Positions 5,819 through 31,784 are shown, counted from the stretch's first letter. The stretch is DNA of 32,000 nt from Candidatus Iainarchaeum sp. (GCA_028710695.1 JAQTTP010000001.1:60001-92000), one strand, 5' to 3'. Notes: generated from the letters alone by a model not told the origin. Numbers and translations are program-made.

Positions 5819-5880
5819 CTCTTTAGCTAAAGATATGTAAAATATGGCGTATAAATATATAAAAGTATATCTAAAGACCC

Positions 5881-5920
5881 AAATAAGCCCAACTTATTTC
5901 ACATAAGTTTAAATAAGTTT
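5881..5920 (+). promoter_or_regulatory. Candidate operator/promoter of the toxin-antitoxin pair
   Basis: A perfect 7-bp inverted repeat AAATAAG-cccaa-CTTATTT lies at 5881-5899. It is followed by the direct repeats ATAAGTTT (5903-5910) and ATAAGTTT (5913-5920), within an AT-rich TATA-like stretch about 30 nt upstream of ATG 5947. Confidence 0.35.
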
Positions 5921-5946
5921 TGTGACTTTAATTATTAGTGATTGTT

Positions 5947-6213
5947 ATGTCTGAAAGTTATGTAAATGTTAATTTGCACATAGATGATTATACAAATAGG
6001 GTTTTGGGTGTTATTAAGGAAAAAAACGGATTAAAAGATAAATCCCAGGCCCTGATGTATTTTGCCAAACAATATGGCAGTGACCTGGTGGACCAAGAGG
6101 TAAAAGATGAAGTGATTAGAGAAGTAATACAAATAGAAGAGAACCACCTAAAGAAATATGGTCTTAGGGCAAAATCTATAAAACAATTAAGAGAAGAAAT
6201 AGAGCGTGACTAG
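5947..6213 (+). CDS. Putative antitoxin (small partner of a RelE-like toxin)
   Basis: This 88-aa acidic/basic helical protein sits 14 nt upstream of, and co-oriented with, a RelE-like gene. The pattern NRVLGVIKEKNGLKDKSQALMYFAKQYG is reminiscent of archaeal DUF2683-type partners, but that is recalled from memory only. ATG 5947 is preferred over GTG 5938. Confidence 0.5.
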   Translation: MSESYVNVNLHIDDYTNRVLGVIKEKNGLKDKSQALMYFAKQYGSDLVDQEVKDEVIREVIQIEENHLKKYGLRAKSIKQLREEIERD

Positions 6214-6227
6214 ATTAAAGTGATTTA

Positions 6228-6503
6228 ATGTTTGATCTTGATTATTCTGATGAATTAAAAGCCACACTTAATAAATTATCTAAAAAAGACCGGAAAAGAT
6301 ATTTTGAAGTAATTAAAAAAATGGATGAAATAATTAATTCGGATCCCGAAACAATAAACCACTACAAAAATTTGAGATACAGTTATTCTGACAGAAAAAG
6401 AGTGCACATTGGCGAGAAATTCGTTTTAACTTTCAGAGTATTTATAAAAGAAAATTTTATTCTTTTTGTAAAATTTGCACATAGAGACGATATTTACAAA
6501 TAA
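6228..6503 (+). CDS. RelE/ParE superfamily type II toxin (mRNA interferase-like)
   Basis: It is 91 aa and has the typical RelE layout: an N-terminal helix (LKATLNKLSKKDRKRYFEVIKKMDEI), then YKNLRYSYSDRKRVHIGEKFVLTFRV...FVKFAHRDDIYK (R-x-R-hIG, hhLhh, HR-x-x-hY). Confidence 0.7.
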   Translation: MFDLDYSDELKATLNKLSKKDRKRYFEVIKKMDEIINSDPETINHYKNLRYSYSDRKRVHIGEKFVLTFRVFIKENFILFVKFAHRDDIYK

Positions 6504-6620
6504 TTGTTTTCTGCCAAGAAAGTAATTTCTTTTAGTGGAAATTATTTCGGGGGCCAACAAAGCTTTTTTGTAGAAAACAAAAAAGTTTGAGGGTCAGAAG
6601 CAACCTTGTTTTACGCAAAG
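6504..6620 (-). repeat. Two-hairpin intergenic repeat, copy C (best aligned in minus orientation, 3' of mutL)
   Basis: The hairpins are GAAAGTAATTTC/ttttagtg/GAAATTATTTC (6518-6548) and AAAGCTTTTTTGT/agaaa/ACAAAAAAGTTT (6559-6588), separated by the core GGGGGCC (6549-6555). The flanking direct repeats are TTGTTTTCTGCCAAG (6504-6518) and TTGTTTTACGCAAAG (6606-6620), 12/15 identical. The 12-mer AAAGTAATTTCT (6519-6530) is identical to 26905-26916. Confidence 0.5.
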
Positions 6621-6637
6621 TTGACTTCTTACTGAAG

Positions 6638-6658
6638 AAATTTTATGAAATAAAATTT
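6638..6658 (-). terminator. AT hairpin at the mutL stop codon
   Basis: A perfect 9-bp inverted repeat AAATTTTAT/gaa/ATAAAATTT overlaps the mutL stop codon (6657-6659). Confidence 0.35.
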
Positions 6659-8405
6659 ACTTCCTGCTTACTTCTTTCTCAATTCTGTCTTTGCTTAGTT
6701 CTATAAAAATAGGCCTTCCATGTGGGCAAGTAAAGGGATTTTCACAATCAAACAAGTTTTCAATGATCTTTTCCATTTGAATCTCATTAAGTGGTGTTCC
6801 GGCTTTTACAGACATTTTACATGCAATAGTAGCAAATAACCCTGCTTGTTTGTCGGTAATATCTGCTTTAATCCCCCTAATAACATCTTTTAGTAATTCC
6901 TTGGTTTCTTCTTTAGTAATACTGTTCCTTATTTTCAAAGGAATAGTCCTAACTAGCAGTTCGTCCTTAAGTTCATCAATTTCAAATCCAAGTTTTCCAA
7001 GCTCATCTTTATTTTCAAGCAAAACCCCTCTGTCCTCAACAGGTAAAAGGAACCCAAATGGAACCAATAATTCTTGTTTTAATAAGCCATTGTGTTCATG
7101 ATATTGGGTTTGTATTTGCTCGAAATTATATCTTTCTTCAGCAACGTGCTGGTCAATAATATAAAAAGAATTATTTTTTTCAACAAGGATGTAAGTATTA
7201 AAAATTTGTCCAATAATTTTAAAGTTTTTTATTTTCGGAGTAGCATGGTGTTGCATTTCTTCTGGCAAAATATCCAAACTTTTTTGTATACTTTTTTCTG
7301 CTTTTATAAAGAAGTCATCCATATCCCCTTTTTCTGCCTTTGTTTCAGATTCCGCAATAAGTCTTGCAGTTATTGTTGAAATAAGTTGTGTTGGTCTTGT
7401 TTTATCAATTTCTGCTTCTTTAATTTGTTCTAATGCATTTTTAACAGCATAAAAAGTTGGCAAAAATAATAAACTATCTTCTTTAACCCTTACTTCTAAT
7501 TTTTGCGGGTGTACATTTACATCAACAATTTTTGGATTAATTTCTAAAAATATGAATGCATCAGGCCTATAAGTTTTTGGAATCTTTGCTTCAAATGCTT
7601 TTTTTATTGCTGACAAAACAGTAAAGTTTTTTATTGGCCTATTATTTATGTAAATTTGAGTAACGCCTTTACTTTCGCTTACTTTATTTGGCTTAGTAAC
7701 AAAAACAATTGCAGAAACCAAGGGATCTTTATATGTTCCTTGGGCTAGGTTTTTTGCAATGTCAAAATGAATTTCATTAACTCTTTCTTCATAGCCTGTT
7801 TTTTTCTGAAAGTTATAAGTTTCTTTTCCATCCACAATAATTTTGAAATTAACCTTTGGATTAGAAATTGCAATGCATTTTATCCAATCAATTATTTTTT
7901 TTAATTCATAATTTGTGGTCTTCAAAAATTTCTGTCTTGCAGGGATATTATAAAATAAATTTTGAACTGTAATCGATGTTCCCTTTCTAAAAGCCGTCAT
8001 TGTTTTTCTGTTAATCAGCCCATTTTCTATTTCAATTACATTAGAATGGTCATAACCTTCAATTGCACTTGTAATTTCCATTTTGGAAACATCCGCAATA
8101 GTAGATAATGCTTCGCCTCTAAATCCATATGACAAAATAGAATAAATATCCTCAATTTTTGTAATTTTTGATGTCGCATGTCTTAAAATAGTTAATTCTA
8201 GATCTTCTTCCTCAATGCCGGTTCCGTTGTCTATGACAGTTATTTCCTTTTTCCCGCCATCTTTTAGCTTGATAATGATTTCATCAGAATTAGCATCTAT
8301 GCTGTTCTCTACAAGTTCCTTTACTGCGGAAGCAGGCCTTTCTATTACCTCTCCAGCCGCAATTTTGTTTATTGTGCTGCTATCAAGAACGTGGATTTTA
8401 CTCAT
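6657..8405 (-). CDS. mutL: DNA mismatch repair protein MutL (endonuclease-type)
   Basis: The GHKL ATPase N-terminus is canonical (INKIAAGEVIERPASAVKELVENSIDA, VIDNGTGI, RHATSKI, GFRGEAL). The C-terminal endonuclease motif DQHVAEERYNFE (7119-7154) matches DQHA-x2-E-x4-E apart from A to V, and CPHGRP is present (6711-6728). Confidence 0.95.
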   Translation of the reverse strand: MSKIHVLDSSTINKIAAGEVIERPASAVKELVENSIDANSDEIIIKLKDGGKKEITVIDNGTGIEEEDLELTILRHATSKITKIEDIYSILSYGFRGEALSTIADVSKMEITSAIEGYDHSNVIEIENGLINRKTMTAFRKGTSITVQNLFYNIPARQKFLKTTNYELKKIIDWIKCIAISNPKVNFKIIVDGKETYNFQKKTGYEERVNEIHFDIAKNLAQGTYKDPLVSAIVFVTKPNKVSESKGVTQIYINNRPIKNFTVLSAIKKAFEAKIPKTYRPDAFIFLEINPKIVDVNVHPQKLEVRVKEDSLLFLPTFYAVKNALEQIKEAEIDKTRPTQLISTITARLIAESETKAEKGDMDDFFIKAEKSIQKSLDILPEEMQHHATPKIKNFKIIGQIFNTYILVEKNNSFYIIDQHVAEERYNFEQIQTQYHEHNGLLKQELLVPFGFLLPVEDRGVLLENKDELGKLGFEIDELKDELLVRTIPLKIRNSITKEETKELLKDVIRGIKADITDKQAGLFATIACKMSVKAGTPLNEIQMEKIIENLFDCENPFTCPHGRPIFIELSKDRIEKEVSRK

Positions 8406-8454
8406 ATAGAAATAGAAAACAGAAGGGTATAAAACCCTATAGTTTTTTGTGTTT

Positions 8455-8715
8455 TTATAGTAAGGTCATACCTTCATTTTCAACGTTTGTAATGTCTGGA
8501 ATAGAGTTTATTTCGTCCTCAAGTCTAGGCATAGCCCCGTCTACCTTGTCAGGTATGATGAAACTTATCTTTATTACCTTTATTCCAAATACCAAGTCTT
8601 CTATCTGACTTTTATCATATTTTGCATTTTTTATCTTCTTTAGCCTTTCATGCACAGCCTCTAGCTTGTCTTGGTCCTCTACACTTATCTTATAAACTAG
8701 TAAAACTTCACCCAT
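8455..8715 (-). CDS. Translation elongation factor aEF-1 beta
   Basis: It is 86 aa with the pattern typical of archaeal EF-1beta (MGEV..VYKI..ED...LE.....LKKI....; VFGIKVIKISFIIPD; C-terminal ...VENEGMTLL). The SD GGAGAG lies upstream. Confidence 0.85.
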   Translation of the reverse strand: MGEVLLVYKISVEDQDKLEAVHERLKKIKNAKYDKSQIEDLVFGIKVIKISFIIPDKVDGAMPRLEDEINSIPDITNVENEGMTLL

Positions 8716-8747
8716 TATAATCTCTCCAATAACTAGACCTTAAACGT

Positions 8748-8897
8748 TTATGGCAATTCTATACCACATTTCTTGCATTTGAAAGTATTGCTTAGAACCC
8801 TGCAGTGGTTACATCTATGAATTTGCTCTCCACATGATGGGCATTTATACTTCACATAATCATCAGTTTTCTTATTACATGTATTACATACTGTCAT
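8748..8897 (-). CDS. Small double zinc-ribbon protein (COG2888-like) upstream of aEF-1beta
   Basis: This gene is not in the supplied ORF track because it is under 60 aa. My translation is MTVCNTCNKKTDDYVKYKCPSCGEQIHRCNHCRVLSNTFKCKKCGIELP*, with four CxxC pairs. The SD AAAGGTGATAATA lies directly upstream of ATG 8897, and the stop is 32 nt before the EF-1beta start. Confidence 0.7.
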   Translation of the reverse strand: MTVCNTCNKKTDDYVKYKCPSCGEQIHRCNHCRVLSNTFKCKKCGIELP

Positions 8898-8946
8898 TAT
8901 TATCACCTTTTTAAGAATTTAGTATATAAGTGTTTGTATCTAAAGA

Positions 8947-8954
8947 TTTATATA
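8947..8954 (+). promoter_or_regulatory. TATA box for the tRNA-Arg gene
   Basis: TTTATATA is preceded by purine-rich AAAGA (BRE-like). Its centre lies about 22-25 nt upstream of the tRNA 5' end at 8972. Confidence 0.4.
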
Positions 8955-8971
8955 TTATATCACAAAAAGTA

Positions 8972-9044
8972 GGACTTGTGAGGTAATTGGATAACCTAGC
9001 GGGCTTCGGACCCGCCTATCGGGGTTCGAGTCCCTGCGAGTCCA
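8972..9044 (+). tRNA. tRNA-Arg (anticodon UCG)
   Basis: I folded the cloverleaf by hand. The acceptor is GGACTTG/CGAGTCC (one G-U pair), with U8. The D arm is AGGT-AATTGGATA-ACCT. The anticodon arm is GCGGG-CTTCGGA-CCCGC, with U33 and anticodon TCG. The variable loop is CTAT. The T arm is CGGGG-TTCGAGT-CCCTG, and the discriminator is A. It is 73 nt, has no intron and does not encode CCA. Confidence 0.9.
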
Positions 9045-10118
9045 CTAAGTAGGGTATAGCTCAAATTGTCCCTCTTTTATAGTATAGAGAACGAATTTTT
9101 CAGTAGTTTCTCCATTTTCATCAAATGAAACTCCAAAGTTTGTAGTTATTGCACTATCTTTGAATTTTTTGGCAGTACAAGCCACATCATCTTTGCAAAT
9201 TGAATAAATTTTTGCATATGCATTTGTTAAATTATAGTATTGCCAAGAAATCTGTGCTGGCTCCTCTGAATATTTTTCTTTGTATTTTTTATAAAATTCT
9301 GTATTTTTATCTAAAAAAGTAGTGCTAAAAATTATTCCGTCAGTAGCATTTCCGCCTGTCTTCATTAAATCTGGGTTTTGACATGCTTGGCCACACAAAA
9401 TTTGTTGTTTTAAGCCCAATTCTCGCGCCTGTTTTGCAATTTCGCCAACATTTACTGCAAATGCGCCAATATAAATCGCGTCAACGTTTTCGTCAATTTT
9501 TAGTAAAGTTGATTTTACGTCTGTAGATTCATTAAATTGTTCTATTAAAGAAACATTTCCTCCTAATTCTAAGTATGGCTTTTCAAAAGCATTTTTTACA
9601 CCTAAACCATAGTCGTCATTTTTGTAAATTATTGCAATGTTCTTTAGATTAAGATTGGCATATGCGAGTTTTGCTAAATCTTTGCCTTCTTGTACTGCAG
9701 ATGGTTGCACTCTAAAAGTATTTAGTCCATTTGTTGTATACTTTGCAGATGCGGCAATTGCAAACAAAATTTTATTATCCTCTTTTATTGGTTCTTGTAA
9801 TAGTATTGAATTTGGTGATCCCAAAGTAAAAAATGCAGTAATATCTTTGTCTATTAGATAATTATATTCACTTAACGTGTCCTTTGTTGTACTCTTTGTA
9901 TCCTCCAGATAAAATTCAACATCCTTACCTTCTGTTTTTAGTTCTTCAATAGCCAGATTAACTCCCTTCTGCATTAAGTCTCCTTGTCTGGACTCTACCC
10001 CTGTCATAGGAAGGAGAGCACCAATTTTTAGGTCGTTTGTAGAATTTGTGCTAAAAAGCAAAACAAAAACAATTACAACAATTAAAACTAATAATCCAAT
10101 TAGCCAAACTTTTCTCAT
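9045..10118 (-). CDS. Membrane-anchored type I periplasmic-binding-fold solute-binding protein (LivJ/LivK, branched-chain amino acid-like family)
   Basis: An N-terminal TM/signal anchor (KVWLIGLLVLIVVIVFVLLF) is followed by the family-typical IGALLPMTGVESRQGDLMQKGVNLAIEEL and alternating beta-alpha segments. No permease or ATPase genes are adjacent. Confidence 0.75.
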   Translation of the reverse strand: MRKVWLIGLLVLIVVIVFVLLFSTNSTNDLKIGALLPMTGVESRQGDLMQKGVNLAIEELKTEGKDVEFYLEDTKSTTKDTLSEYNYLIDKDITAFFTLGSPNSILLQEPIKEDNKILFAIAASAKYTTNGLNTFRVQPSAVQEGKDLAKLAYANLNLKNIAIIYKNDDYGLGVKNAFEKPYLELGGNVSLIEQFNESTDVKSTLLKIDENVDAIYIGAFAVNVGEIAKQARELGLKQQILCGQACQNPDLMKTGGNATDGIIFSTTFLDKNTEFYKKYKEKYSEEPAQISWQYYNLTNAYAKIYSICKDDVACTAKKFKDSAITTNFGVSFDENGETTEKFVLYTIKEGQFELYPT

Positions 10119-10207
10119 AAATAGAAACTTAATCTCTTAACTATTTACTATATTGTTGTCAAATAACTAACGACAGACATATATTATTTTCGTAAAACTA
10201 TTTTATT

Positions 10208-10930
10208 ATGGAACCGGAATTAAAAAGTTTGGGTTTGACTGACAAGGAAATAAAAGTATATCTTGCCCTATTAAATTTAGGTATTGCACTTGTGAATGAC
10301 ATTGCAAAAAAAGCAGGGACTTACAGAACATATACTTACGAAGTTTTAAAATCTCTTAAGGAAAAAGGATTAGTATCACACGTAATAAAATCTGGAAAAC
10401 AGTATTATGAGGTGGCACCACCTGAAAAATGGCAATCTATTTTAAAAGAAAAAGAACAAAAATTTAATAAAATCCTTCCCGAATTAAAAAAAATATATTC
10501 TATAACTGTTGAAAAACCAAGGACGGAAGTTTATGAGGGCAAAGAAGGTCTAAAAACAGTTTTGGATGACATGTTAAAAACAAAGAAAACGATTTATGTT
10601 TATGGAAATACAAAGAAAATGTGGCAATATTTACAAACAAATTTTCCACAGTTTATTTTGAAACGGTCTAGCCTAGGCATAAAAACAAAAATTGTTGATG
10701 TTAGATCCAAAGAAGCAGAAAAAATAAATACAAAAAGTAAGGTAGAGTTACGAGAAATGCGTTTTCTGCCCAAACAATACGAATTTTCTATGACTACAAA
10801 TATTTATGGAAACAAAGTTGCAATGTTATCTTTTCAAGATGAATTTGTAGGAATTATAATAGAAAACAAAAGTATTGCAGAATCTCAAAAAGTAGTTTTT
10901 GATTTTCTCTGGTCTTCTGCAAAACCATAA
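10208..10930 (+). CDS. TrmB family transcriptional regulator
   Basis: The N-terminal winged HTH is LGLTDKEIKVYLALLNLGIALVNDIAKKAGTYRTYTYEVLKSLKEKGLVSHV. A coiled linker and a C-terminal TrmB-like domain follow. Confidence 0.8.
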   Translation: MEPELKSLGLTDKEIKVYLALLNLGIALVNDIAKKAGTYRTYTYEVLKSLKEKGLVSHVIKSGKQYYEVAPPEKWQSILKEKEQKFNKILPELKKIYSITVEKPRTEVYEGKEGLKTVLDDMLKTKKTIYVYGNTKKMWQYLQTNFPQFILKRSSLGIKTKIVDVRSKEAEKINTKSKVELREMRFLPKQYEFSMTTNIYGNKVAMLSFQDEFVGIIIENKSIAESQKVVFDFLWSSAKP

Positions 10931-11698
10931 CTATCTTACATAGCTTGGTTTGACATCTGAAGCTTCATCTTTTGATAATTGCTTTAATGCTGTCTGAACT
11001 TCTTTGAATGCTTTTGAAATCTTCTTTGCTTCTTTGTCAATGTCTTTCAAATCAACTTTCAACTCAAAGTACTTTGAAATGAATTCTAACATTTTCTTTG
11101 CTGCCTCAAAATCACCATAAATAAGCTTTGATGTTGTTTCTGCCAAGATACAATATCCTTGCATGCCTTCTTCTTTTGCAAATCCAAGAGTTAATCCTGC
11201 AACCCCTGATATTGTAATTTCGTCTTGTAATAATTTTGCATATTTGCTTGGCTCTTTTTTCTTTGTATTTGTTGTAACAAAATATAATTCTGGATTTTTT
11301 GTAATTCTTGCATCAGAAATATCAAGCCCACCAAAAGTATAAATCTCTTTTACACCCAACTCTTTTGCAATTTCAACAATTTTTTTTGCAAACTCAAAAT
11401 GTGCTTCTGGATTTATGTTTTCAAAAAGTGCTGGTTGTGCAATTCCAGTAAGTAAAATAAAATCTTTTTTCTTTGTTTTTATTATAGAAAATTCATCTTT
11501 TATTAAATCAATCTGTCCTTTATAAGTTATTCCTGCAGGCGTAAAATAAGTTGAATAAATGGAACCAATCTTTTCATTTTTCATTTTTTCAGCAATGAAA
11601 TCTATTGCAATTTTTCCAACTAGGCCAATGCCTGGCAAGCCAATTAATAAAGTTGGATTATTTAGTTTAACATTTTTCACATTAGAAATAACTGCCAA
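10931..11698 (-). CDS. PAC2 family protein (putative proteasome assembly chaperone, COG1938)
   Basis: The N-terminal motif LLIGLPGIGLVGKIAIDFI and the 255-aa size fit the family. Its position downstream of aIF2-alpha matches the conserved archaeal neighbourhood. Confidence 0.7.
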   Translation of the reverse strand: MAVISNVKNVKLNNPTLLIGLPGIGLVGKIAIDFIAEKMKNEKIGSIYSTYFTPAGITYKGQIDLIKDEFSIIKTKKKDFILLTGIAQPALFENINPEAHFEFAKKIVEIAKELGVKEIYTFGGLDISDARITKNPELYFVTTNTKKKEPSKYAKLLQDEITISGVAGLTLGFAKEEGMQGYCILAETTSKLIYGDFEAAKKMLEFISKYFELKVDLKDIDKEAKKISKAFKEVQTALKQLSKDEASDVKPSYVR

Positions 11699-23553: not shown

Positions 23554-23619
23554 AATAGAACTTAAAATGAAAAATATAAATACTTTTACTTCTTATACAT
23601 ATAGATTTATGGGGTGTTT

Positions 23620-24114
23620 ATGATGTTAAATTTACTTTTTTGGAAAAAAGGCTCAAAGGGACAAGGTGCCTTAGAGTATCTATTAATCATTGGTGCGGCA
23701 ATTCTGATTGCAGCAATAGTAGTGACAATCTTGGTAAAAACCACAAAAACCACAGAAGGATCTGTGGACAAGGTTTACGGGGATTTTAACAAAGTTGTTA
23801 GCGATATAAACTTAGATACCGATATTAATACGGGAGAAGTAAATACGCCAGTAGGTTGTGATGCGGATTGTATTTCAGAAAAGTTTAAAGGCTGTATTCC
23901 AGCAGAACACACAGATCAAACCGGGGACGGGTACGATATAACAATTTATGGTTTAGAACCAGTGACTGATGACCCACCCTATGAAGAAGATGAACTGTGG
24001 TGTAAAATAAACGTTTATAAAGAATCCGAATTAGACACTAACTGTATTATTCCAGAATATTGGTTATATAATGAATTAACAACTGCGATAATAGAACACT
24101 GTGATTTGGGCTAG
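23620..24114 (+). CDS. Archaeal type IV pilin-like protein with class III signal peptide
   Basis: KKGSKG/QGALEYLLIIGAAILIAAIVVTILV has a basic stretch, a G-Q cleavage context, Glu at +5 and a hydrophobic helix. The C-terminal domain is acidic and globular with 6 Cys. The SD GGGGTG lies upstream, and the start is ATG 23620 or 23623. Confidence 0.7.
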   Translation: MMLNLLFWKKGSKGQGALEYLLIIGAAILIAAIVVTILVKTTKTTEGSVDKVYGDFNKVVSDINLDTDINTGEVNTPVGCDADCISEKFKGCIPAEHTDQTGDGYDITIYGLEPVTDDPPYEEDELWCKINVYKESELDTNCIIPEYWLYNELTTAIIEHCDLG

Positions 24115-24219: not shown

Positions 24220-25260
24220 ATGGCCTTCATAGATAGTTTATTTGAACATAAGAAATACTTATATCTTTTGATAATTCCTGCAATCATATTTGTGATTGCA
24301 ATCATATCTACCTTCTTTGTGCCTACAAGCATAGATTTGAAGGGTGGAGTTCTAATAATAATGCAAACAGACCAGGATGTAACCCCTAAGGCCCTTGAGG
24401 AAGCCATATCTTCCAAATTTGGAATAAATGAGGTTAAAGTTACTGTAACCCAAGGAATTGGCCTTAAGGGTGTTCAGGTACAATACCTTCAGGCGAAAGA
24501 TGTAATGGATCTTGATGCATTGATAAAGAGCATTGAATCTACTTCAGAAAACGATGTTGAGCTGGCAAAGACCCAGGCATTAAAATATTTAACTGAAAAC
24601 AACATACAAGTTGAAAAGAAAGAATTAACTGATTTGCTTAATGCTATGAAGCAAGAATATAACAACAAAAAGAACGTAACAATAAGCGATATATCTTCAT
24701 TTTTAGTATCTGATTATGGTGCAAAAGCAGAAACTGCACAAATTAAAGAGATTGCCCCTACTTTGGGAGCTACTTTTTATAAAACAGCAATAAATGTTGG
24801 AATCACTGCACTAGTTTTGATTGCGATAGTGGTATTTTTATTTTTTAGAAAGCCAATACCTTGTTTTGCAGTTATTTTATCTGCGATTTTAGATTTATTT
24901 GGTGGGTTATTGGGTATGGCAATATTTGGAATACCCTTATCATTGGTAACTATTCCTGCATTGCTTATGTTAGTTGGTTATTCAATTGACACAGATGTAA
25001 TGCTTACAGCAAAACTATTGAAACAGCAAGGCGGAAGCGTAAAAGAAAAAACTTTGTCAGCTTTGAAAACAGGTTTAACTATGACTTTAACATCATTTGC
25101 TGCTGTTGTAGTAATGGCAATAGTTGCATATGTAATGAACATAACTGTATTGTACGACATGTCAATCGTATTATCTTTTGGATTATTAGTTGATATAATC
25201 TCAACATGGCTAATGAATGCCCCAATTTTATTGTGGTATGTTGAGCACAAGAGTAAATGA
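24220..25260 (+). CDS. secF: Protein-export membrane protein SecF
   Basis: It has an N-terminal TM, an extracytoplasmic domain of about 150 aa and a C-terminal bundle of 5 TM segments. The SecF-type motif VGYSIDTDVMLTAKLL is present. It lies directly upstream of secD. Confidence 0.85.
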   Translation: MAFIDSLFEHKKYLYLLIIPAIIFVIAIISTFFVPTSIDLKGGVLIIMQTDQDVTPKALEEAISSKFGINEVKVTVTQGIGLKGVQVQYLQAKDVMDLDALIKSIESTSENDVELAKTQALKYLTENNIQVEKKELTDLLNAMKQEYNNKKNVTISDISSFLVSDYGAKAETAQIKEIAPTLGATFYKTAINVGITALVLIAIVVFLFFRKPIPCFAVILSAILDLFGGLLGMAIFGIPLSLVTIPALLMLVGYSIDTDVMLTAKLLKQQGGSVKEKTLSALKTGLTMTLTSFAAVVVMAIVAYVMNITVLYDMSIVLSFGLLVDIISTWLMNAPILLWYVEHKSK

Positions 25261-25269
25261 GGGATCTGA

Positions 25270-26868
25270 ATGGAATTTAAAGACGTTATAAAGAAACCGA
25301 GAGTTGCAATATTAATCTTTTTGCTTATTATTGGTGCAATAATATTGGGTGTAAACGGCCTTAAATATGGTCTAGATTTTAGTGGTGGAACCCAATTTAC
25401 TATTGAACTTGATAAAGAAGTTACTGACGCAAGTACTTTAGCCTTAGTAACTAGTACAATAAGCCAAAGACTTGATTGGTCTGGATTAAAAGACACAACA
25501 GTTAATACCTGGGGTGGAAAATATGTTGTTGCACAAGTTGGAACAACAGATCCTGCAGAAATAGAGGCTTTAGAGTCTGTATTATACAAACAAGGGCGTT
25601 TTGAAAACATCATGGACGGCGAAATACTTTTTAATGGTGAAGATATTCTTTCAGTAGATAAAAATCCTTCTCAAGGATATAGCATAACAGACACAGGTAG
25701 TGGATATTATAGTTGGACTCTACCGTTTACATTAAAAACAAAATCTGCCAAAAAATTTGCAGAAATGACATTCCATAAATGTGTGCCATCAGGAACCGGT
25801 GGAGCATATGATTGTCCAAAAACATTTTTCTTTATTGACAGGCCTTTGAACTCAGTTTTTATAATCCCACAAGACTTATATGACGAGGAGCAATTACTTC
25901 CAACAGATCCAATAAATAAACAATCTTCAACAATAGAACTGGATGAAGCAATGAAAAATGCAAATATTGAATATATAATTGCGGATACAATAGATGCAAA
26001 TGTGATTGCAAAATTAAATGATTATAAATCAAAAGGGATAGAGAAAGTAATAGTTCCAAAAAGTGTTTATGATTTATCTGGCTTAGACTTGAATTTACAA
26101 TTTGTTGAAATAGCAAAGAACAATAAAGAGCCATGGGTTTGGACCGCAAGTGGTCTGAAATCTATTATTTGGGTTAATGAAGATATTACAAATTTAGGGG
26201 CCCCAAATACAAGCTCTTCAAACTTTAAAGTATTTTACACTTTGACTATTAGAGGCAGTGCACAAAACAAGGATGAAGCAGTATACAAATCAGATAATAT
26301 TTTTGTATTACTATCCTCTGGTTCTTTGCCAGTAGGTGTTTCTAATATTTCAAAAGAAACAATATCCCCTGTTTTGGGAGAAAACTTTTTAACTACTATA
26401 TTTATTATAGGAATTTTAGCAATAATTATTGTTGCATTAGTAGTTTATATTAGATATAAACACCCAACATTAATTGCAGCAATTATGGTTTCAACACTAG
26501 CAGAAGTATTTTTAATTTTAGTTTGTGCTTCAATAATTGGTTGGAGACTTGATCTTGCGGCAATTGTTGGTTTAATTGCAGCAATTGGAACTGGTGTAGA
26601 TGATGTTGTAATCATCACTGATGAAATCTCAAAGAACAAGGAAGAAAAAGAAGAACATAGTTTGTTAGCAAAAGTTAAAAGAGCATTCTTCATGATCTTT
26701 GCTGCTGCAGCAACAACTATCGCAGCAATGGTACCAATATTGATCTTTGGCTTCGGATTTGGAAAGCTTACTGGATTTGCTTTGACAGTAATTATGGGTA
26801 TATTGATTGGAGTAATAATCACAAGACCAGCATATTCCGAAGTAGTGAAATACATAATGTCCAAGTAA
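25270..26868 (+). CDS. secD: Protein-export membrane protein SecD
   Basis: It has an N-terminal TM, a large extracytoplasmic domain and a C-terminal TM bundle. The motif IGTGVDDVVIITDEI is present (compare the bacterial SecD G-x-x-VD-x-x-V). It is 532 aa. Confidence 0.85.
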   Translation: MEFKDVIKKPRVAILIFLLIIGAIILGVNGLKYGLDFSGGTQFTIELDKEVTDASTLALVTSTISQRLDWSGLKDTTVNTWGGKYVVAQVGTTDPAEIEALESVLYKQGRFENIMDGEILFNGEDILSVDKNPSQGYSITDTGSGYYSWTLPFTLKTKSAKKFAEMTFHKCVPSGTGGAYDCPKTFFFIDRPLNSVFIIPQDLYDEEQLLPTDPINKQSSTIELDEAMKNANIEYIIADTIDANVIAKLNDYKSKGIEKVIVPKSVYDLSGLDLNLQFVEIAKNNKEPWVWTASGLKSIIWVNEDITNLGAPNTSSSNFKVFYTLTIRGSAQNKDEAVYKSDNIFVLLSSGSLPVGVSNISKETISPVLGENFLTTIFIIGILAIIIVALVVYIRYKHPTLIAAIMVSTLAEVFLILVCASIIGWRLDLAAIVGLIAAIGTGVDDVVIITDEISKNKEEKEEHSLLAKVKRAFFMIFAAAATTIAAMVPILIFGFGFGKLTGFALTVIMGILIGVIITRPAYSEVVKYIMSK

Positions 26869-26946
26869 TTAATTCCAAAGTAACTGGAATTATTACAGGG
26901 GCCTAAAGTAATTTCTGATAAAGAAATTAACTTTTTGTCCAAGTAA
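26858..26946 (+). repeat. Two-hairpin intergenic repeat, copy B (3' of secD), bracketed by a perfect 11-bp direct repeat
   Basis: TGTCCAAGTAA occurs at 26858-26868 (the last secD codons plus stop) and again at 26936-26946. In between lie hairpin 1 TAATTCCA/aagtaac/TGGAATTA (26870-26892), the core CAGGGGCCT (26896-26904) and hairpin 2 AAAGTAATTTCT/gataa/AGAAATTAACTTT (26905-26934). Confidence 0.55.
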
Positions 26947-27010: not shown

Positions 27011-28252
27011 ATGCCTACTAGAATTGCAGAACGAAGAACACAGCTTGCAGAAAGGCTAAGAACTTTGAACACTAAACATTCCTGGATGCAATTTGAGAGC
27101 ATATATCAAAGACCTGCAGAAAGACCAAGAAAAGTGGGGGGTCGAAAATTTACTGTTTATTCTGAAACTGAAAGGCAGTTGTCAGAAGTGATACCTGAAT
27201 ATTGGGACAAAGAAAGTTTAAGAAAATTTGTAAAAAAACATGGCCTCGGATATGAACATATTAAATTACTCCGTATAAAACGATATTTTCGTGAAGCAGC
27301 AGTGGAGGCCAGGAAAGAATTATTAGAAACATTATTTTATAACCCTGAAAAAATAAAAGAAAAATATGATGCTTTGCAAGAAAAAATTGCTAAAGGTGCG
27401 TCTAAATCTAGTGGGTTGGTTGATTGGTCACGCGCAGAGTACATTTTAAATGTCGAATTAACTTCTGTTTTTAGGCGTATGTCAATCTGGATGAACTCAA
27501 AATTTGGAGAAACGCGGGCCGTAGGTCCAGACAATGAATTAGCAGCAAAAACTATTTGTAATTTGTTTAGCGAAGCTTATAAAAAATTTTCTGGACAAAC
27601 TCTCTTTTATAAGGACTATGAGGCCAGGGTCAAAGGGTTTCTTTCAAATCCTTTTTTTGCACTTCAAACAAATGCGCTTGAGCGATTTTTATATTTAGGG
27701 GAAACAAAGGGTATTGAGAATCTAATTTATTGGTATAAAAAATTAAGGGCTGGAGAGAAGGTAACCTTTTTTGATCTTCAAAAAGATTCTGTACTATGGG
27801 GCCTATATGTTCCAAGAGGACCAGGCCATAGTTTTCGGTGGGCGGATAAAATATTTGGCCTTACTGCGGGAGTTAATGTATTAAGTCACGAATTTATACA
27901 TATGATGTTAAACAATACTCTTTCCCATCGTCGTCGTCCACTATTTAGGAATGAATCTTTTGTAGATTATCTTGCTCATTTATTTACAATCATATCTTGC
28001 CCACATGATGTACGTATTAGTAAGAGATCCAGCACATTTACTAAACCTCAACAGGAGTTTATTGAAAGTTGTGTGTTCGGAAGCCAAGGTTATGAACGTT
28101 GGGAAGAACTGCCTAATTTGTTTTCATCAAGCCCTGGTTTAGAATATGATTTGGGGGTAGAGGCCGCAAGAAAATTTTGCGAATCAGTAGGTTATGACAA
28201 AGAAAAGATAAAACAAAGAATACAAAAAGAATTAGCTACAATATATTCTTAG
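27011..28252 (+). CDS. Cytoplasmic HExxH protein, possible gluzincin / peptidase-MA-like domain
   Basis: HEFIH lies at 27887-27901. It is followed 17 residues later by NESFVDYLAH (Glu codon at 27953-27955), resembling HExxH...NE(G/S)F of the MA-clan peptidases. There is no signal peptide or TM segment. The first 280 aa or so are unrecognisable, basic and helical. Arg codon usage is atypical, with many CGN codons. Confidence 0.45.
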   Translation: MPTRIAERRTQLAERLRTLNTKHSWMQFESIYQRPAERPRKVGGRKFTVYSETERQLSEVIPEYWDKESLRKFVKKHGLGYEHIKLLRIKRYFREAAVEARKELLETLFYNPEKIKEKYDALQEKIAKGASKSSGLVDWSRAEYILNVELTSVFRRMSIWMNSKFGETRAVGPDNELAAKTICNLFSEAYKKFSGQTLFYKDYEARVKGFLSNPFFALQTNALERFLYLGETKGIENLIYWYKKLRAGEKVTFFDLQKDSVLWGLYVPRGPGHSFRWADKIFGLTAGVNVLSHEFIHMMLNNTLSHRRRPLFRNESFVDYLAHLFTIISCPHDVRISKRSSTFTKPQQEFIESCVFGSQGYERWEELPNLFSSSPGLEYDLGVEAARKFCESVGYDKEKIKQRIQKELATIYS

Positions 28253-28257
28253 TTACA

Positions 28258-28719
28258 TTACTTATTTTCAAATATATACCACATTAGTAGAATACATCCA
28301 GAAACAAAGAACCAACCAAATATATGCAAATATTCCACAGTTCCTTTTGTTGAATATTCAAAAATAATATACAACCTTAAAAGGTTCACAACAAACAAAA
28401 CAGGAATAGATGCAATTAAAAAAATCACAATTTGTTTCCAATTCTTCTTTGTGAGCTTAAATGCCTTTTGAACAATTACTATGCTTGCTAACAAAAATAT
28501 GGCTACAAATCCAGTACATAAATTGTTTATGCTTACTTCGTAGCCATCTTTATGCAAAGTAGGTAAGTCAGAATAGTTTAAATCTTCACTAATAAATACA
28601 TCAAGAGTTTTTCCAGTAATTGCTGGAAAAGGGAGTTTAACGTAATCTATTAGGGCCATAAAACAAATGTTTACTATAAGACAAACGATAATGAAACCCC
28701 AAATCTTTTTGTTTATCAT
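28258..28719 (-). CDS. Mini exosortase/archaeosortase-family membrane protein (putative Cys transpeptidase)
   Basis: It is 153 aa with about 4-5 TM segments. The ordered signature is Cys68 in VSINNLCTGF (codon 28516-28518), Arg115 in VVNLLRLYII (28375-28377) and His132 in EYLHIFGWFF (28324-28326). This matches the C...N-x-x-R...H-x-x-G layout of the exosortase/archaeosortase core domain. Confidence 0.6.
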   Translation of the reverse strand: MINKKIWGFIIVCLIVNICFMALIDYVKLPFPAITGKTLDVFISEDLNYSDLPTLHKDGYEVSINNLCTGFVAIFLLASIVIVQKAFKLTKKNWKQIVIFLIASIPVLFVVNLLRLYIIFEYSTKGTVEYLHIFGWFFVSGCILLMWYIFENK

Positions 28720-28785
28720 ATAAGATAGAAAATAATAAAGCTTTTTAATAACTCATTTGTTATTTATATATCTTTGAGTGGTATT

Positions 28786-29139
28786 ATGGCTAGAAAAGGA
28801 CAAATAAGTCTTGATCTCTTATTGGCAGTAATCATCTTTGCGATCCTTTTCTCGGTATTTTTCGTTTTTGGCAATACAATTGTTGAAAAATCAGATTTGT
28901 TTAAACAAGACGCCGAGCTTTCAAAAGAAGCAAACGAACTGAGGCCATACTTTGCAGCCATATCTTTACCACCGGAATACAAACTTCTTTATGACTTAGG
29001 CTGTAAAGATAAATCTTTCTACACTCAAGATGGGAATTATTTTGTTTCTTTTGCTGACGGAAATGGTCTGGAGAAATTAATAGCCCCCGGAAATTTAGAT
29101 AATTATTTTTGTAATACCAAAGTTTATTTCAATAAATGA
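28786..29139 (+). CDS. Pilin-like protein 1 with class III signal peptide
   Basis: MARKG/QISLDLLLAVIIFAILFSVFFVF has a basic stretch, a G-Q cleavage context, Asp at +5 and a hydrophobic helix. The mature part has 2 Cys. ATG 28786 is preferred over GTG 28774. Confidence 0.6.
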   Translation: MARKGQISLDLLLAVIIFAILFSVFFVFGNTIVEKSDLFKQDAELSKEANELRPYFAAISLPPEYKLLYDLGCKDKSFYTQDGNYFVSFADGNGLEKLIAPGNLDNYFCNTKVYFNK

Positions 29140-29624
29140 TTTTTATGGTGCGATTAAATCGGAAAGGAATAATGTTTTCATTGGATTTGGTCTTTGCAGT
29201 TGTGCTATTTGTACTTCTGTTTGGAATATTATATCAAACCTTTTCCTATTCTTTACACCAATATAACTCTCTAAAAACAAATGTAGAGTTAAGCAGCTAT
29301 TTAGACCTGATCGAAAACAAATTTGTTTTAAGCAAAGATTTCTCATGTGATCTTGTAACTCAGGATGATGTAGTAATAAAACAAATTGCTTATTGTATAG
29401 ATACCTCTAAATTTAATCGAAATTTGCTTGCCTTGCCACCAGCTCTGAAATTATCAATCCCCGAGTTAAATATTAATGATACAATAGAAATGGAGTTTGC
29501 AAAAAAGTTCAAAGTAATTTTGCATAATGGCCCAGTAAAAAAAGCAGATTATTATAATTGTGTAATGGGTGCGGAATGTAAACTTGTAGAATCAGAATTA
29601 ACTATTGGGGTTGGTTATCAATGA
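29136..29624 (+). CDS. Pilin-like protein 2 with class III-type signal peptide
   Basis: The signal region is RLNRKG/IMFSLDLVFAVVLFVLLFGILY. The mature part has 4 Cys. The start overlaps the previous stop (ATGA), and ATG 29145 is an alternative start. Confidence 0.55.
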   Translation: MIFMVRLNRKGIMFSLDLVFAVVLFVLLFGILYQTFSYSLHQYNSLKTNVELSSYLDLIENKFVLSKDFSCDLVTQDDVVIKQIAYCIDTSKFNRNLLALPPALKLSIPELNINDTIEMEFAKKFKVILHNGPVKKADYYNCVMGAECKLVESELTIGVGYQ

Positions 29625-29890
29625 ATCGCGGATTCATATTCACATTTGACCTGCTTTTTATAGTTGGCCTGTTTATAACTCTTTTTTCTGTGCCAGTAAA
29701 TGATTCTAAGACCCCCTATTTTGATTACTCTTATATGAACTCAGATAAAATGATGTCATATTATTTTGACAAGAGCCCAGCAGATGTAAACAAAGATGTA
29801 AGTTTTTTGTGTTATAATACTTACAAGCAAAACCCTGGAGAAGAACAAGCCCAAATAAAAGAATATTGCTATGGTGGTTATCATGAATAA
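29621..29890 (+). CDS. Pilin-like protein 3 with class III-type signal peptide
   Basis: The signal region is MNRG/FIFTFDLLFIVGLFITLF. The mature part has 2 Cys. The start overlaps the previous stop (ATGA). Confidence 0.55.
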   Translation: MNRGFIFTFDLLFIVGLFITLFSVPVNDSKTPYFDYSYMNSDKMMSYYFDKSPADVNKDVSFLCYNTYKQNPGEEQAQIKEYCYGGYHE

Positions 29891-30413
29891 TAGATCAAGT
29901 AAAGGTTTTTTCAGCGTGATCCTGGCAGTAGCGGGGGTTGCTCTTTTGTTGTTTAATATTTCAATTCCAACATATACCTCAAATAATTATCCTGAATTTA
30001 TAACAAAAAATGAAATGCAATATTTGTATTTAAATAATGTGATAACAAAACAGATGGCAGATTATTTTATTTCTACTCCCGGTTGTGATTTTGATTTTGT
30101 GGGATTCAAAGATTATCTAAACTCTAATGCTGCGTCTTTCTGCGAAAACTTTAGTAGCGAATTCTTTAAGTGCGATATTAAGGTAGTAACCGTATTTCAA
30201 AAGTTTGGGTTAACAAATGTAACTCTTTCTATAAATAATTCTTTTGATAAAGGGGCAATCCACTTTACATATTCAAAAGAAATAACATTTTCAAAAATAT
30301 TTGCCCCAACACAACTTACAATACCTATGCCAGATGGTACAGAACAAAAGACTTGTAATTATACAATAACTGATTTTGAATCCCAGTTAGTAGAAGCATC
30401 AGGAACCAAATAA
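29883..30413 (+). CDS. Pilin-like protein 4 with class III-type signal peptide
   Basis: The signal region is MNNRSSKG/FFSVILAVAGVALLLF, with no acidic residue at +5/+6. The mature part has 4 Cys. ATG 29883 overlaps the previous gene by 8 nt, and ATG 29871 is an alternative start. Confidence 0.5.
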   Translation: MNNRSSKGFFSVILAVAGVALLLFNISIPTYTSNNYPEFITKNEMQYLYLNNVITKQMADYFISTPGCDFDFVGFKDYLNSNAASFCENFSSEFFKCDIKVVTVFQKFGLTNVTLSINNSFDKGAIHFTYSKEITFSKIFAPTQLTIPMPDGTEQKTCNYTITDFESQLVEASGTK

Positions 30414-31784
30414 AGTAGTTTGCTTTGCTTTTTCGCGTGTAGGTGTCAAATCTTTTTCTGAGGCTTTTGCATTGTTGTTTTTTGTCTCCTCTTTTTGTTT
30501 TTCTTTACCTTGTAGGTTGTCAAAGCCCATCTTGATTTTCTTTGTATTGATTTTGTTTGACTCCTTTTTATCATCTTTTTTGTCTTCTTTTGCAAGTAGT
30601 TTAAATTTTATCTTTAACAGCTTCTCAAGGTTTTCTAATTCTAAATCTGTATACCTGCTTTGTAGGAACTCGGCATCAGCGCTTTCAAAATACTGTTTAT
30701 AATATGGAATTTCATTTAAAATTCTTTTTGAGCTTCCCCGTATCAGTTTTTGCACTAACTTTGCAATTTCTTTGTTTTTTGAAAAGCTACTTCTTTCTTT
30801 AGACATCCTTGAAATAAAAGTTGGAAAATTGAACTTTGCAAACTTTTTGTTCTTTAACATAAAAGGCGCAACAATGCCAGTCATTAAATAATATTTCAAG
30901 AAAATCCAATTCTGTCTTTTGTAAATATAATTCCTCATCAAATCCGCATAGGACACAAGATCGTATGCTTTTTTTAGTTCAGGGTAACCATAAATATTAG
31001 AAATATTTTCATTAACCCATGCAAATTGCATATCATAATCTATATTGCAGGAATCTTGTATCCGCTTGCCTTCTGTTAGAGACTTTGATCTTTGTAAATT
31101 CATCAATGTCGAAAATATATTATCTGTTTTCTCTCTTTCCCCCAATATTGCAACAGTTTTTTCTGTTACTCCAATATCAGCCAATGCTTCTAAATCCAAA
31201 ATTGCAGAACGTATATCTCCTTTTGCGTTTTTTGCAATCATTTCTAAAGCGTTCTCAGAAAAATAAATGTCTTCTTTTGCAATAATGTCTTTTAGTTTTT
31301 TCTGTATTTCTAAATAAGTTAATTTCTTTAGATTCACTACGACACAATAATTTACTACGTCTCTGATCTTCTGATTAGAATAAACATCCGTTGCGGTGAA
31401 TATAACTGGATTTTTTGCAACCTTTATTATTTCTAGAATTTTAGAACTTGCTCCACTGTCTTTTACTGGCAAGAAATCTAGATCTTCAAAAATGAAAAGG
31501 TTTCTTTTATTAAAAAATGAGTTTGACTGAACAAATAATTCCATTCTTTTTTCCAGAGATTCTTTGTCTCTCTGTTCATCAGGGCTGATTTCGTTTATTT
31601 GCCAATTTTTTTCATAAGAAACAACTCTGGCAATAGTGCTTTTCCCAACCCCTGTGCCACCTACAAGCAAAAGTGGTTTACGTTCTTTGTCGAAGTTTTC
31701 AGCCCAGGCTTTTACATCAGCAATGGCTTGTTTGTTTCCTACAAACCCTTCGTAGCCCTGTGGCTCGTATTTATCTAAGAACAT
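30399..31784 (-). CDS. rfcL: Replication factor C large subunit (RfcL)
   Basis: The N-terminus FLDKYEPQGYEGFVGNKQAIADVKAWAENF corresponds to the W-x-EKYRP...VG motif. Walker A is GGTGVGKST and Walker B is IFEDLD. The tail is Lys-rich, and the C-terminal KQTTLFGS resembles the PIP-type end of archaeal RFC-L. The 3' end overlaps the convergent pilin-like gene 4 by 15 nt. Confidence 0.9.
   Translation of the reverse strand: MFLDKYEPQGYEGFVGNKQAIADVKAWAENFDKERKPLLLVGGTGVGKSTIARVVSYEKNWQINEISPDEQRDKESLEKRMELFVQSNSFFNKRNLFIFEDLDFLPVKDSGASSKILEIIKVAKNPVIFTATDVYSNQKIRDVVNYCVVVNLKKLTYLEIQKKLKDIIAKEDIYFSENALEMIAKNAKGDIRSAILDLEALADIGVTEKTVAILGEREKTDNIFSTLMNLQRSKSLTEGKRIQDSCNIDYDMQFAWVNENISNIYGYPELKKAYDLVSYADLMRNYIYKRQNWIFLKYYLMTGIVAPFMLKNKKFAKFNFPTFISRMSKERSSFSKNKEIAKLVQKLIRGSSKRILNEIPYYKQYFESADAEFLQSRYTDLELENLEKLLKIKFKLLAKEDKKDDKKESNKINTKKIKMGFDNLQGKEKQKEETKNNNAKASEKDLTPTREKAKQTTLFGS

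Follow-up and report, generated by a model that had tools for sequence, protein, structure and literature searches.

ArtA, the archaeosortase of the PGF-CTERM system in Haloferax and methanogens, belongs to a superfamily (PF09721/TIGR04178) with conserved Cys, Arg and His residues. Processing by ArtA in Haloferax requires PssA and PssD (PMC7157517). In Methanosarcina, artA is syntenic with pssA and pssD, and CDP-archaeol is the precursor of archaetidylethanolamine in the proposed model of lipid attachment (PMC7157517). Whether archaeosortases are one-step transpeptidases is unsettled (bioRxiv 10.1101/2023.06.07.544157). Here, we analyzed a 32,000-nucleotide (nt) stretch of DNA, the window, from Candidatus Iainarchaeum sp. 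(GCA_028710695.1 JAQTTP010000001.1:60001-92000), a DPANN archaeon of the phylum Iainarchaeota; all coordinates are counted from its first letter. It encodes a 153-amino-acid (aa) archaeosortase-family protein, called the small sortase below, beside four divergent pilin-like genes, p1 to p4. The original prediction took this pairing for an undescribed surface-assembly module. Our analysis did not uphold that proposal: the adjacency fails to recur in the wider clade (none of 43 metagenome loci has p1-p4 homologues, and CarS, the CDP-archaeol synthase, takes their place in 37 of 37), and p1-p4 show no sorting signal of the kind that this class of enzyme recognises. We found that a small archaeosortase is widespread in the relatives of this Iainarchaeota-type archaeon. 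The window protein is probably the positional orthologue of this housekeeping enzyme for Sec-exported proteins, with CarS replaced by the p1-p4 operon.

The small sortase is encoded at 28258-28719 on the minus strand. It matches PF09721 (Exosortase_EpsH; 33.4 bits against a cut-off of 25.7, E 3.9e-8) and TIGR04178 (exo_archaeo; 33.0 bits against a cut-off of 23, E 5.6e-8), and the PF09721 match covers profile positions 156-251 of 254. The predicted membrane protein with the Cys/Arg/His order of exosortases and archaeosortases, about half as long as ArtA/EpsH-type enzymes, was thus recovered in full. The three residues lie in the motifs INNLCTGF (C68), NLLRLY (R115) and YLHIFGW (H132). In an alignment of 16 small-sortase sequences that are 22-88% identical (A1), all of which match TIGR04178, the residues C68, G70, N112, R115, H132, W136 and W147 are invariant. 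C68, R115 and H132 are also invariant in the alignment of the CarS-linked clade described below (A4). A broader alignment of 28 sequences keeps R115 throughout, with Ser for C68 in three small archaeosortases (P0031, P0032, P0033) and Asp for H132 in two (P0037, P0039). These relatives are possible nucleophile or base variants.

Although the superfamily assignment is clear of both cut-offs, none of the named Art/Xrt subfamily models in NCBIfam reaches its cut-off with the 153-aa protein. The top named model is XrtX (31 bits against 170), and the scores for ArtH (22 against 200), XrtH (17.2 against 86) and heimdallarchaeosortase (15.8 against 130) are lower still. The ArtA model TIGR04125 does not match at E 1 or better; the relatives match it weakly. 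The identical protein in NCBI is named 'archaeosortase/exosortase family protein'. Among 1.84 billion representatives scanned exhaustively with HMMER, only 14 relatives came to light, all of 144-193 aa. The small size of the protein is not novel alone, since NCBIfam already holds exosortase/archaeosortase models of 158-202 positions (XrtH, XrtK, XrtX, XrtF, heimdallarchaeosortase and ArtH).

We examined the predicted structure of the small sortase with AlphaFold2 (AF2). The model is confident (pLDDT 87.3, pTM 0.80) and has four long helices and one short helix (4-27, 31-40, 71-86, 94-122 and 128-152), with a beta-hairpin at 54-63 in the first loop. On this model the sortase is a polytopic membrane protein with four predicted transmembrane helices. 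Helices 2, 3 and 4 would carry C68, R115 and H132 at their outer-leaflet ends; we infer this outer-face position because of the positive-inside rule (N-terminal KK; loop 87-95, KAFKLTKKNWK). No meaningful match to a solved structure in the PDB was found by sequence profile or by fold. The gene is under strong purifying selection, with a ratio of nonsynonymous to synonymous substitution rates (dN/dS) of 0.05 against its orthologue in locus L004. All five genes of the pairing are under purifying selection (dN/dS 0.05-0.14 where estimable); for p1, whose synonymous sites are saturated, the proportions of differing sites point in the same direction (pN 0.15, pS 0.82). Judged from its sequence, the 153-aa protein is a genuine and unclassified small member of the exosortase/archaeosortase family, apparently functional and most likely a membrane-embedded Cys/Arg/His peptidase or transpeptidase.

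The small sortase thus shares its superfamily and its conserved Cys, Arg and His with ArtA, and in its relatives it is linked to archaeal phospholipid synthesis, which recalls the artA-pssA-pssD synteny. However, it reaches about half the length of ArtA and has four predicted transmembrane helices; its relatives' linkage is to CarS, whereas that of ArtA is to PssA and PssD; and the examined DNA of the window lineage showed no PGF-CTERM or other tripartite signal. With XrtH, XrtK, XrtX, XrtF, ArtH, heimdallarchaeosortase and pacearchaeosortase it has a similar length and the same C-terminal catalytic core in common. Unlike these catalogued small sortases, it falls far under every subfamily cut-off, it has no XrtH_assoc partner gene beside it as XrtH has, and the CarS/SecDF context is specific to its archaeal clade. 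We found no paper on an exosortase in Diapherotrites in the searchable literature.

We then explored whether the pairing of sortase and pilin-like genes is conserved. Related loci (L numbers; L001 is the DNA past the 3' end of the window) were collected by a locus search of genomes with a four-sequence sortase alignment (A2). The p1-p4 cassette is limited to one narrow lineage, made up of the window and L002, L003, L004, L005, L012, L013 and L014. The original prediction had named a lack of conservation of the adjacency as refuting; this one lineage is the only place where it was seen. Within it, the order of the replication factor C large subunit (RFC-L), p4-p1, the divergent sortase and SecD is kept at 83-88% sortase identity (L002, L003, L004, L012) and also in the more distant L005 and L013 (40-48%). 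The whole block is syntenic in this lineage; therefore, it represents one lineage observed several times and gives no independent weight to the adjacency. A loss of p1 and p2 in L004 was considered and rejected, as a run of N masks that stretch. The p2 family, searched in a set of 5.8 billion proteins, has nine members, none under 42% identity.

Outside this lineage, the sortase has other neighbours. The order in the nearest wider clade is a DUF92 membrane protein, often SppA, CarS, the sortase on the same strand, and then SecD and SecF convergent with it. We found this order in L006, L007/L008 and L010 (for example, the L007 block at 4796-10233) and, after a profile search of metagenomes with the clade alignment A4, in 43 further loci (L015-L057), at 37-65% sortase identity. 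The neighbours were tallied by tblastn, and only loci with enough upstream DNA were counted (n = 37). In every one of them, CarS is the immediate upstream neighbour on the sortase strand (34 scored and three with overlapping alignments), with gaps of 0-154 nt between the alignment ends. SecD is convergent downstream of the sortase in 36 of the 37 metagenome loci, as well as in L002-L007, L009, L010 and L013. One locus, L009, retains SecD/SecF and SppA and has no CarS. The assignments of CarS (NF003114, 186.7 bits against 148) and of SppA, the signal-peptide peptidase (TIGR00706, 189 against 155), are both above the equivalog cut-offs. CarS and the small sortase apparently form an operon in this wider clade; no report of such an operon or synteny was found in the searchable literature.

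No homologues of p1-p4 were found in the 43 metagenome loci, nor in four further loci of the nearest clade. When a relaxed class-III signal pattern was applied to the CarS-clade loci, it detected only internal segments of CarS and DUF92 and one pilin beside SecF (L017). We also looked at other small sortases. A second archaeal clade (178-184 aa; L011 6627-8120, L060 297-2482) has fixed neighbours of its own, with DUF460 upstream with overlapping ends and AMMECR1 convergent downstream, and the bacterial XrtH adjoins XrtH_assoc. Pilin genes do not stand next to the sortase in the CarS, DUF460/AMMECR1 or XrtH clades. The adjacency of sortase and pilin-like genes is a lineage-specific juxtaposition and no conserved functional module.

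The window lineage retains the SecF-SecD-sortase block, and its sortases score 45-62 bits with the CarS-clade profile against 22-32 bits with the DUF460/AMMECR1-clade profile. Because of this block and the higher CarS-clade scores, we regard the window sortase as a positional orthologue whose upstream partner has been exchanged. On this reading, the small sortase would act on the outer side of the membrane and cleave the C-terminal membrane anchor of Sec-exported surface proteins there. The substrates would be encoded elsewhere in the genome. The new C-terminus would probably be transferred to an amino-lipid made from CDP-archaeol, by analogy with ArtA, and SppA could clear the released helices. 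The CarS linkage in the relatives supports a role in lipid attachment because of the artA-pssA-pssD synteny and the dependence of ArtA on PssA and PssD. In the window lineage, a rearrangement would have put the divergent p1-p4 operon in the place of CarS, and the N-terminal signals of p1-p4 would be handled by a prepilin peptidase about 5.5 kb away.

Several observations weigh against this reading. The scores of the window lineage with the CarS-clade profile are no better than cross-clade scores. Among CarS-clade loci, the identity of the sortases follows that of SecD (fit 0.56x + 19, residual standard deviation 5); the window sortase is 31% identical to the CarS clade where about 43% is expected from SecD, and 42% identical to that of L005 where about 63% is expected. 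Such fast evolution could signal a change of function, and the region between the sortase and p1 is unusually conserved. CarS was not found in the examined DNA of the window lineage, so that the suggested lipid link rests on relatives, and a tripartite C-terminal signal was not found in the window, L001, L004 or L005 (about 35 kb of the window genome). Moreover, the convergent adjacency of SecD cannot reflect co-transcription, and all loci may share one phylum, in which case the synteny is partly shared ancestry. The fast sortase evolution and the conserved promoter region keep a small probability for a new role specific to this lineage.

The divergent intergenic region deserves attention in this respect. 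As predicted, the sortase and p1 share a 66-nt promoter region at 28720-28785, between the sortase start codon (28717-28719) and the p1 ATG (28786). Two blocks stand out in it, one of 19 conserved nt at 28731-28749 (AATAATAAAGCTTTTTAAT) and an A/T-rich, TATA-like one at 28760-28771 (TTATTTATATAT). Its mean column identity across six genomes is 77%, against 40-64% for the flanking proteins. The 19-nt block has no second copy in the window or L001, and it is absent upstream of the other pilin genes there.

The four pilin-like genes lie on the plus strand: p1 at 28786-29139 (117 aa), p2 at 29136-29624 (159-162 aa), p3 at 29621-29890 (89 aa) and p4 at 29871-30413 (176-180 aa). Translational coupling by ATGA overlaps had been proposed for all four. 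We found such overlaps between p1 and p2 (29136-29139) and between p2 and p3 (29621-29624), but p3 and p4 overlap by 8 nt (ATGAATAA, p4 start at 29883) or by 20 nt (start at 29871), with no 4-nt ATGA. The paired cysteines hold good: the proteins have two, four, two and four Cys, respectively, and these counts are kept in the L005 orthologues; the four of p2 are invariant. Orthologues of p1 were found in L002, L003, L005, L012 and L013.

Class III (prepilin-like) signals were likewise proposed for all four proteins. With a relaxed pattern, all four show a short basic leader that ends in [KR]G with a hydrophobic helix of about 20 residues after it, and a stricter form of the pattern gave no match in 50 shuffles of the window. 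The N-termini are MARKG followed by QISLDLLLAVIIFAILF in p1, MVRLNRKG followed by IMFSLD in p2 (likely start 29145), MNRG followed by FIFTFDLLF in p3, and MNNRSSKG followed by FFSVILAV in p4 from its alternative start at 29883. However, PF04021, the archaeal pilin and flagellin models and the other Pfam and NCBIfam models do not match p1-p4 at E 1 or better, and PHROGs holds no family for them. A hidden Markov model (HMM) built from the pilin N-termini of the lineage fits p1 (E 3.8e-5) but gives only about 0.5-0.9 for p2 and p3, and nothing for p4. The N-termini of p1, p2 and p3 are alike (phmmer gave 4e-6 for p3 against p2 among 11 sequences), and p4 does not resemble the local pilins significantly. 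For p2, AF2 predicts (pLDDT 83.8) a helix of 57 residues (6-62) and then a beta domain, in the 'lollipop' layout of pilins; p2 has no match in the PDB by Foldseek or by sequence profile. The label 'pilin-like' therefore seems fair; it is firm for p1 and at its weakest for p4, and p1-p4 may reasonably be regarded as lineage-specific type-IV-pilin-like (minor-pilin-like) proteins.

In their layout, p1-p4 resemble type IV minor-pilin and pseudopilin operons: they are four small coupled proteins of unequal size with [KR]G and a helix, and p2 is predicted to have a long helix and a beta domain. The nearby genes for an A24 prepilin peptidase and for four short pilins recall the archaeal pilins processed by PibD/EppA/FlaK. 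They differ from archaeal class-III pilins in having no PF04021 or other pilin/flagellin model match, with only p1 fitting the local profile, and from type IV filament systems in that the 35 kb showed neither an assembly ATPase nor a platform gene, and the PDB no matching fold. A Cys transpeptidase gene adjoining pilin genes is also found in the class C sortase operons of Gram-positive bacteria. However, the fold of those enzymes is unrelated to that of archaeosortases, their pilins carry a C-terminal LPXTG motif, transmembrane helix and basic tail that p1-p4 do not have, and their co-localisation with pilin genes is conserved, whereas that of the small sortase with p1-p4 is not.

We also searched for substrates with a C-terminal sorting signal. 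The DNA examined for the window genome comprised about 35 kb (the window and L001) of a 238-kb NCBI contig. In agreement with the original prediction, no window open reading frame (ORF) of at least 80 aa, polytopic membrane proteins aside, has a motif, a C-terminal transmembrane helix and a basic tail. The p1-p4 proteins end in …VYFNK, …IGVGYQ, …YGGYHE and …EASGTK; these ends are soluble, and they have neither transmembrane helix nor basic tail. No obvious common motif was found in p1-p4 at the outer end of the N-terminal helix. The first of the two alternatives offered at the outset, namely that the substrates are encoded elsewhere, thus appears the better supported from these sequences. Among the relatives, a tripartite tail (…PVPDYSL-ISILSLLGIVIFILV-RKK) is present on a Cys-rich protein with TSP1-like repeats in three related CarS-clade loci (L053 3-716, L054 3-716, L048 1-711), located 3.2 kb from the CarS-sortase pair on its upstream side. 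None of the NCBIfam CTERM models matches this secreted protein, which is a possible substrate type for the CarS clade and a single lead.

Other explanations of the locus have to be weighed against an orthologue of a housekeeping enzyme. The sortase could be a plain protease that cleaves C-terminal anchors and so releases or sheds Sec substrates with no lipid involved, CarS then being part of a membrane-biogenesis cluster. SecDF and SppA, its neighbours, have to do with export and the clearance of peptides and not with lipid transfer, no CarS is nearby in the window lineage, and the one-step transpeptidase status of archaeosortases is still open, all of which would agree with such an activity. 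However, the tight, same-strand position of CarS in all 37 loci, with three overlaps, and the dependence of Haloferax ArtA cleavage on PssA and PssD (PMC7157517) argue against it, and we consider it unlikely. The protein might instead have no enzymatic role, as what is left of a longer archaeosortase that is decaying or has lost catalysis; this would fit its length, about half that of the PF09721 model, and its quick divergence within the lineage. Yet the dN/dS of 0.05 and the conserved triad led us to reject the pseudogene idea. The invariance of N112, G70, W136 and W147 together with the triad in 16 sequences, the confident and compact AF2 fold, the usual length of 144-193 aa across the family and the existence of curated small-sortase models also speak against a remnant, which is extremely improbable.

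The proposal closest to the original one is that the small sortase was recruited to act on or with p1-p4, by anchoring, lipidation or fibre cross-linking that needs no C-terminal transmembrane signal. It can draw on the 66-nt divergent region, which is more conserved than the flanking proteins, and on the adjacency itself, which all genomes of the lineage keep, even where sortase identity falls to 40%. The faster evolution of the sortase also coincides with the loss of the CarS linkage and the gain of p1-p4, while purifying selection stays strong. However, RFC-L, SecD and SecF are just as syntenic within the lineage, so the adjacency has no independent weight, and p1-p4 homologues or pilin operons are missing beside the sortase in the 43 and four loci of the relatives, beside the DUF460/AMMECR1-clade sortases and beside bacterial XrtH. 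The p1-p4 proteins have no C-terminal transmembrane helix, basic tail or obvious common motif, their type of signal has its own peptidase nearby, and the promoter block is not common to other pilin genes in the examined DNA. Recruitment is therefore quite doubtful in our view. The fuller chain of events, in which the sortase was uncoupled from CarS, came under a promoter shared with p1-p4 and evolves fast as it acts on or with them, is a little more doubtful again.

The window is AT-rich (GC content about 32%) and carries archaeal housekeeping genes, among them those for the RFC large subunit, SecD/SecF, RadA, Rad50 and primase. SecF (24220-25260) and SecD (25270-26868) are on the plus strand and were identified by Pfam and NCBIfam matches. 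Between SecD and the sortase is a 413-aa orphan ORF with an HExxH motif (27011-28252, plus strand), which is convergent with the sortase as had been noted. It belongs to no Pfam, NCBIfam or PHROG family and is missing in L002, L003, L004, L005 and L013, where SecD and the sortase are about 19-70 nt apart; it is a strain-specific insertion outside the conserved arrangement. The last 10 nt of secD (GTCCAAGTAA, 26859-26868) are repeated 78 nt downstream (26937-26946), right before this insertion.

Upstream of secF, at 23614-24114 on the plus strand, the window encodes a bona fide pilin of 166 aa with a class-III signal (KG followed by QGALEYLLIIGAAILIAAIVV). It matches PF04021 (30.5 against a cut-off of 23.7) and served as the positive control for that model. 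A class-III-signal pilin adjoins secF in L005 as well (10118-11314), where a long C-terminal extension brings it to 398 aa, and in a single locus of the CarS clade (L017, about 7654). On the other side, RFC-L (30399-31784, minus strand; NF003229, E 2e-71) stands between p1-p4 and a pilin/prepilin-peptidase cluster past the window end (L001 508-3181; L012 3930-9108). This cluster comprises four pilins of 59-70 aa with class-III signals, an A24 peptidase, two more pilin-like proteins (154 and 121 aa) and a 794-aa Cys-rich CARDB surface protein. The peptidase (358 aa, L001 1303-2379) has the domains PF01478 (Peptidase_A24) and PF06819 (Arc_PepC), matches EppA (55.7 bits) and FlaK (33.1 bits) under their equivalog cut-offs, and lies about 5.5 kb from p4. 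It is expected to process the N-terminal signals of p1-p4.

A few further observations were made along the way. A G-x-G-Y-x sequence ends both p2 (IGVGYQ) and p3 (YGGYHE), at 29600-29624 and 29870-29890, and is kept in the orthologues; G155, G157 and Y158 of p2 are invariant among them. At 3545-5818 on the minus strand, the window encodes a 757-aa protein with a signal-anchor, very many cysteines and no C-terminal anchor, which is probably secreted; its sole family match is DUF7107, below threshold. Two adjoining 91-aa ORFs at 5938-6503 on the plus strand are a candidate small antitoxin/toxin pair.

Taken for itself, the locus adds one more unclassified small archaeosortase, here beside lineage-specific pilin-like genes, and no new surface-assembly system. 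The still unexplained speed at which the window-lineage sortase evolves offers a small lead; if the enzyme did act on or with p1-p4, an exosortase-family enzyme would for the first time be linked to type IV pilin-like proteins. The near-universal operon of CarS and the small sortase beside secDF, often with sppA, is the more useful by-product. This linkage gives independent comparative support, from DPANN archaea, to the idea that archaeosortase cleavage is coupled to the attachment of a CDP-archaeol-derived lipid, and a protein of about 150-160 aa may offer a minimal enzyme in which this cleavage and lipid-attachment chemistry can be tested.

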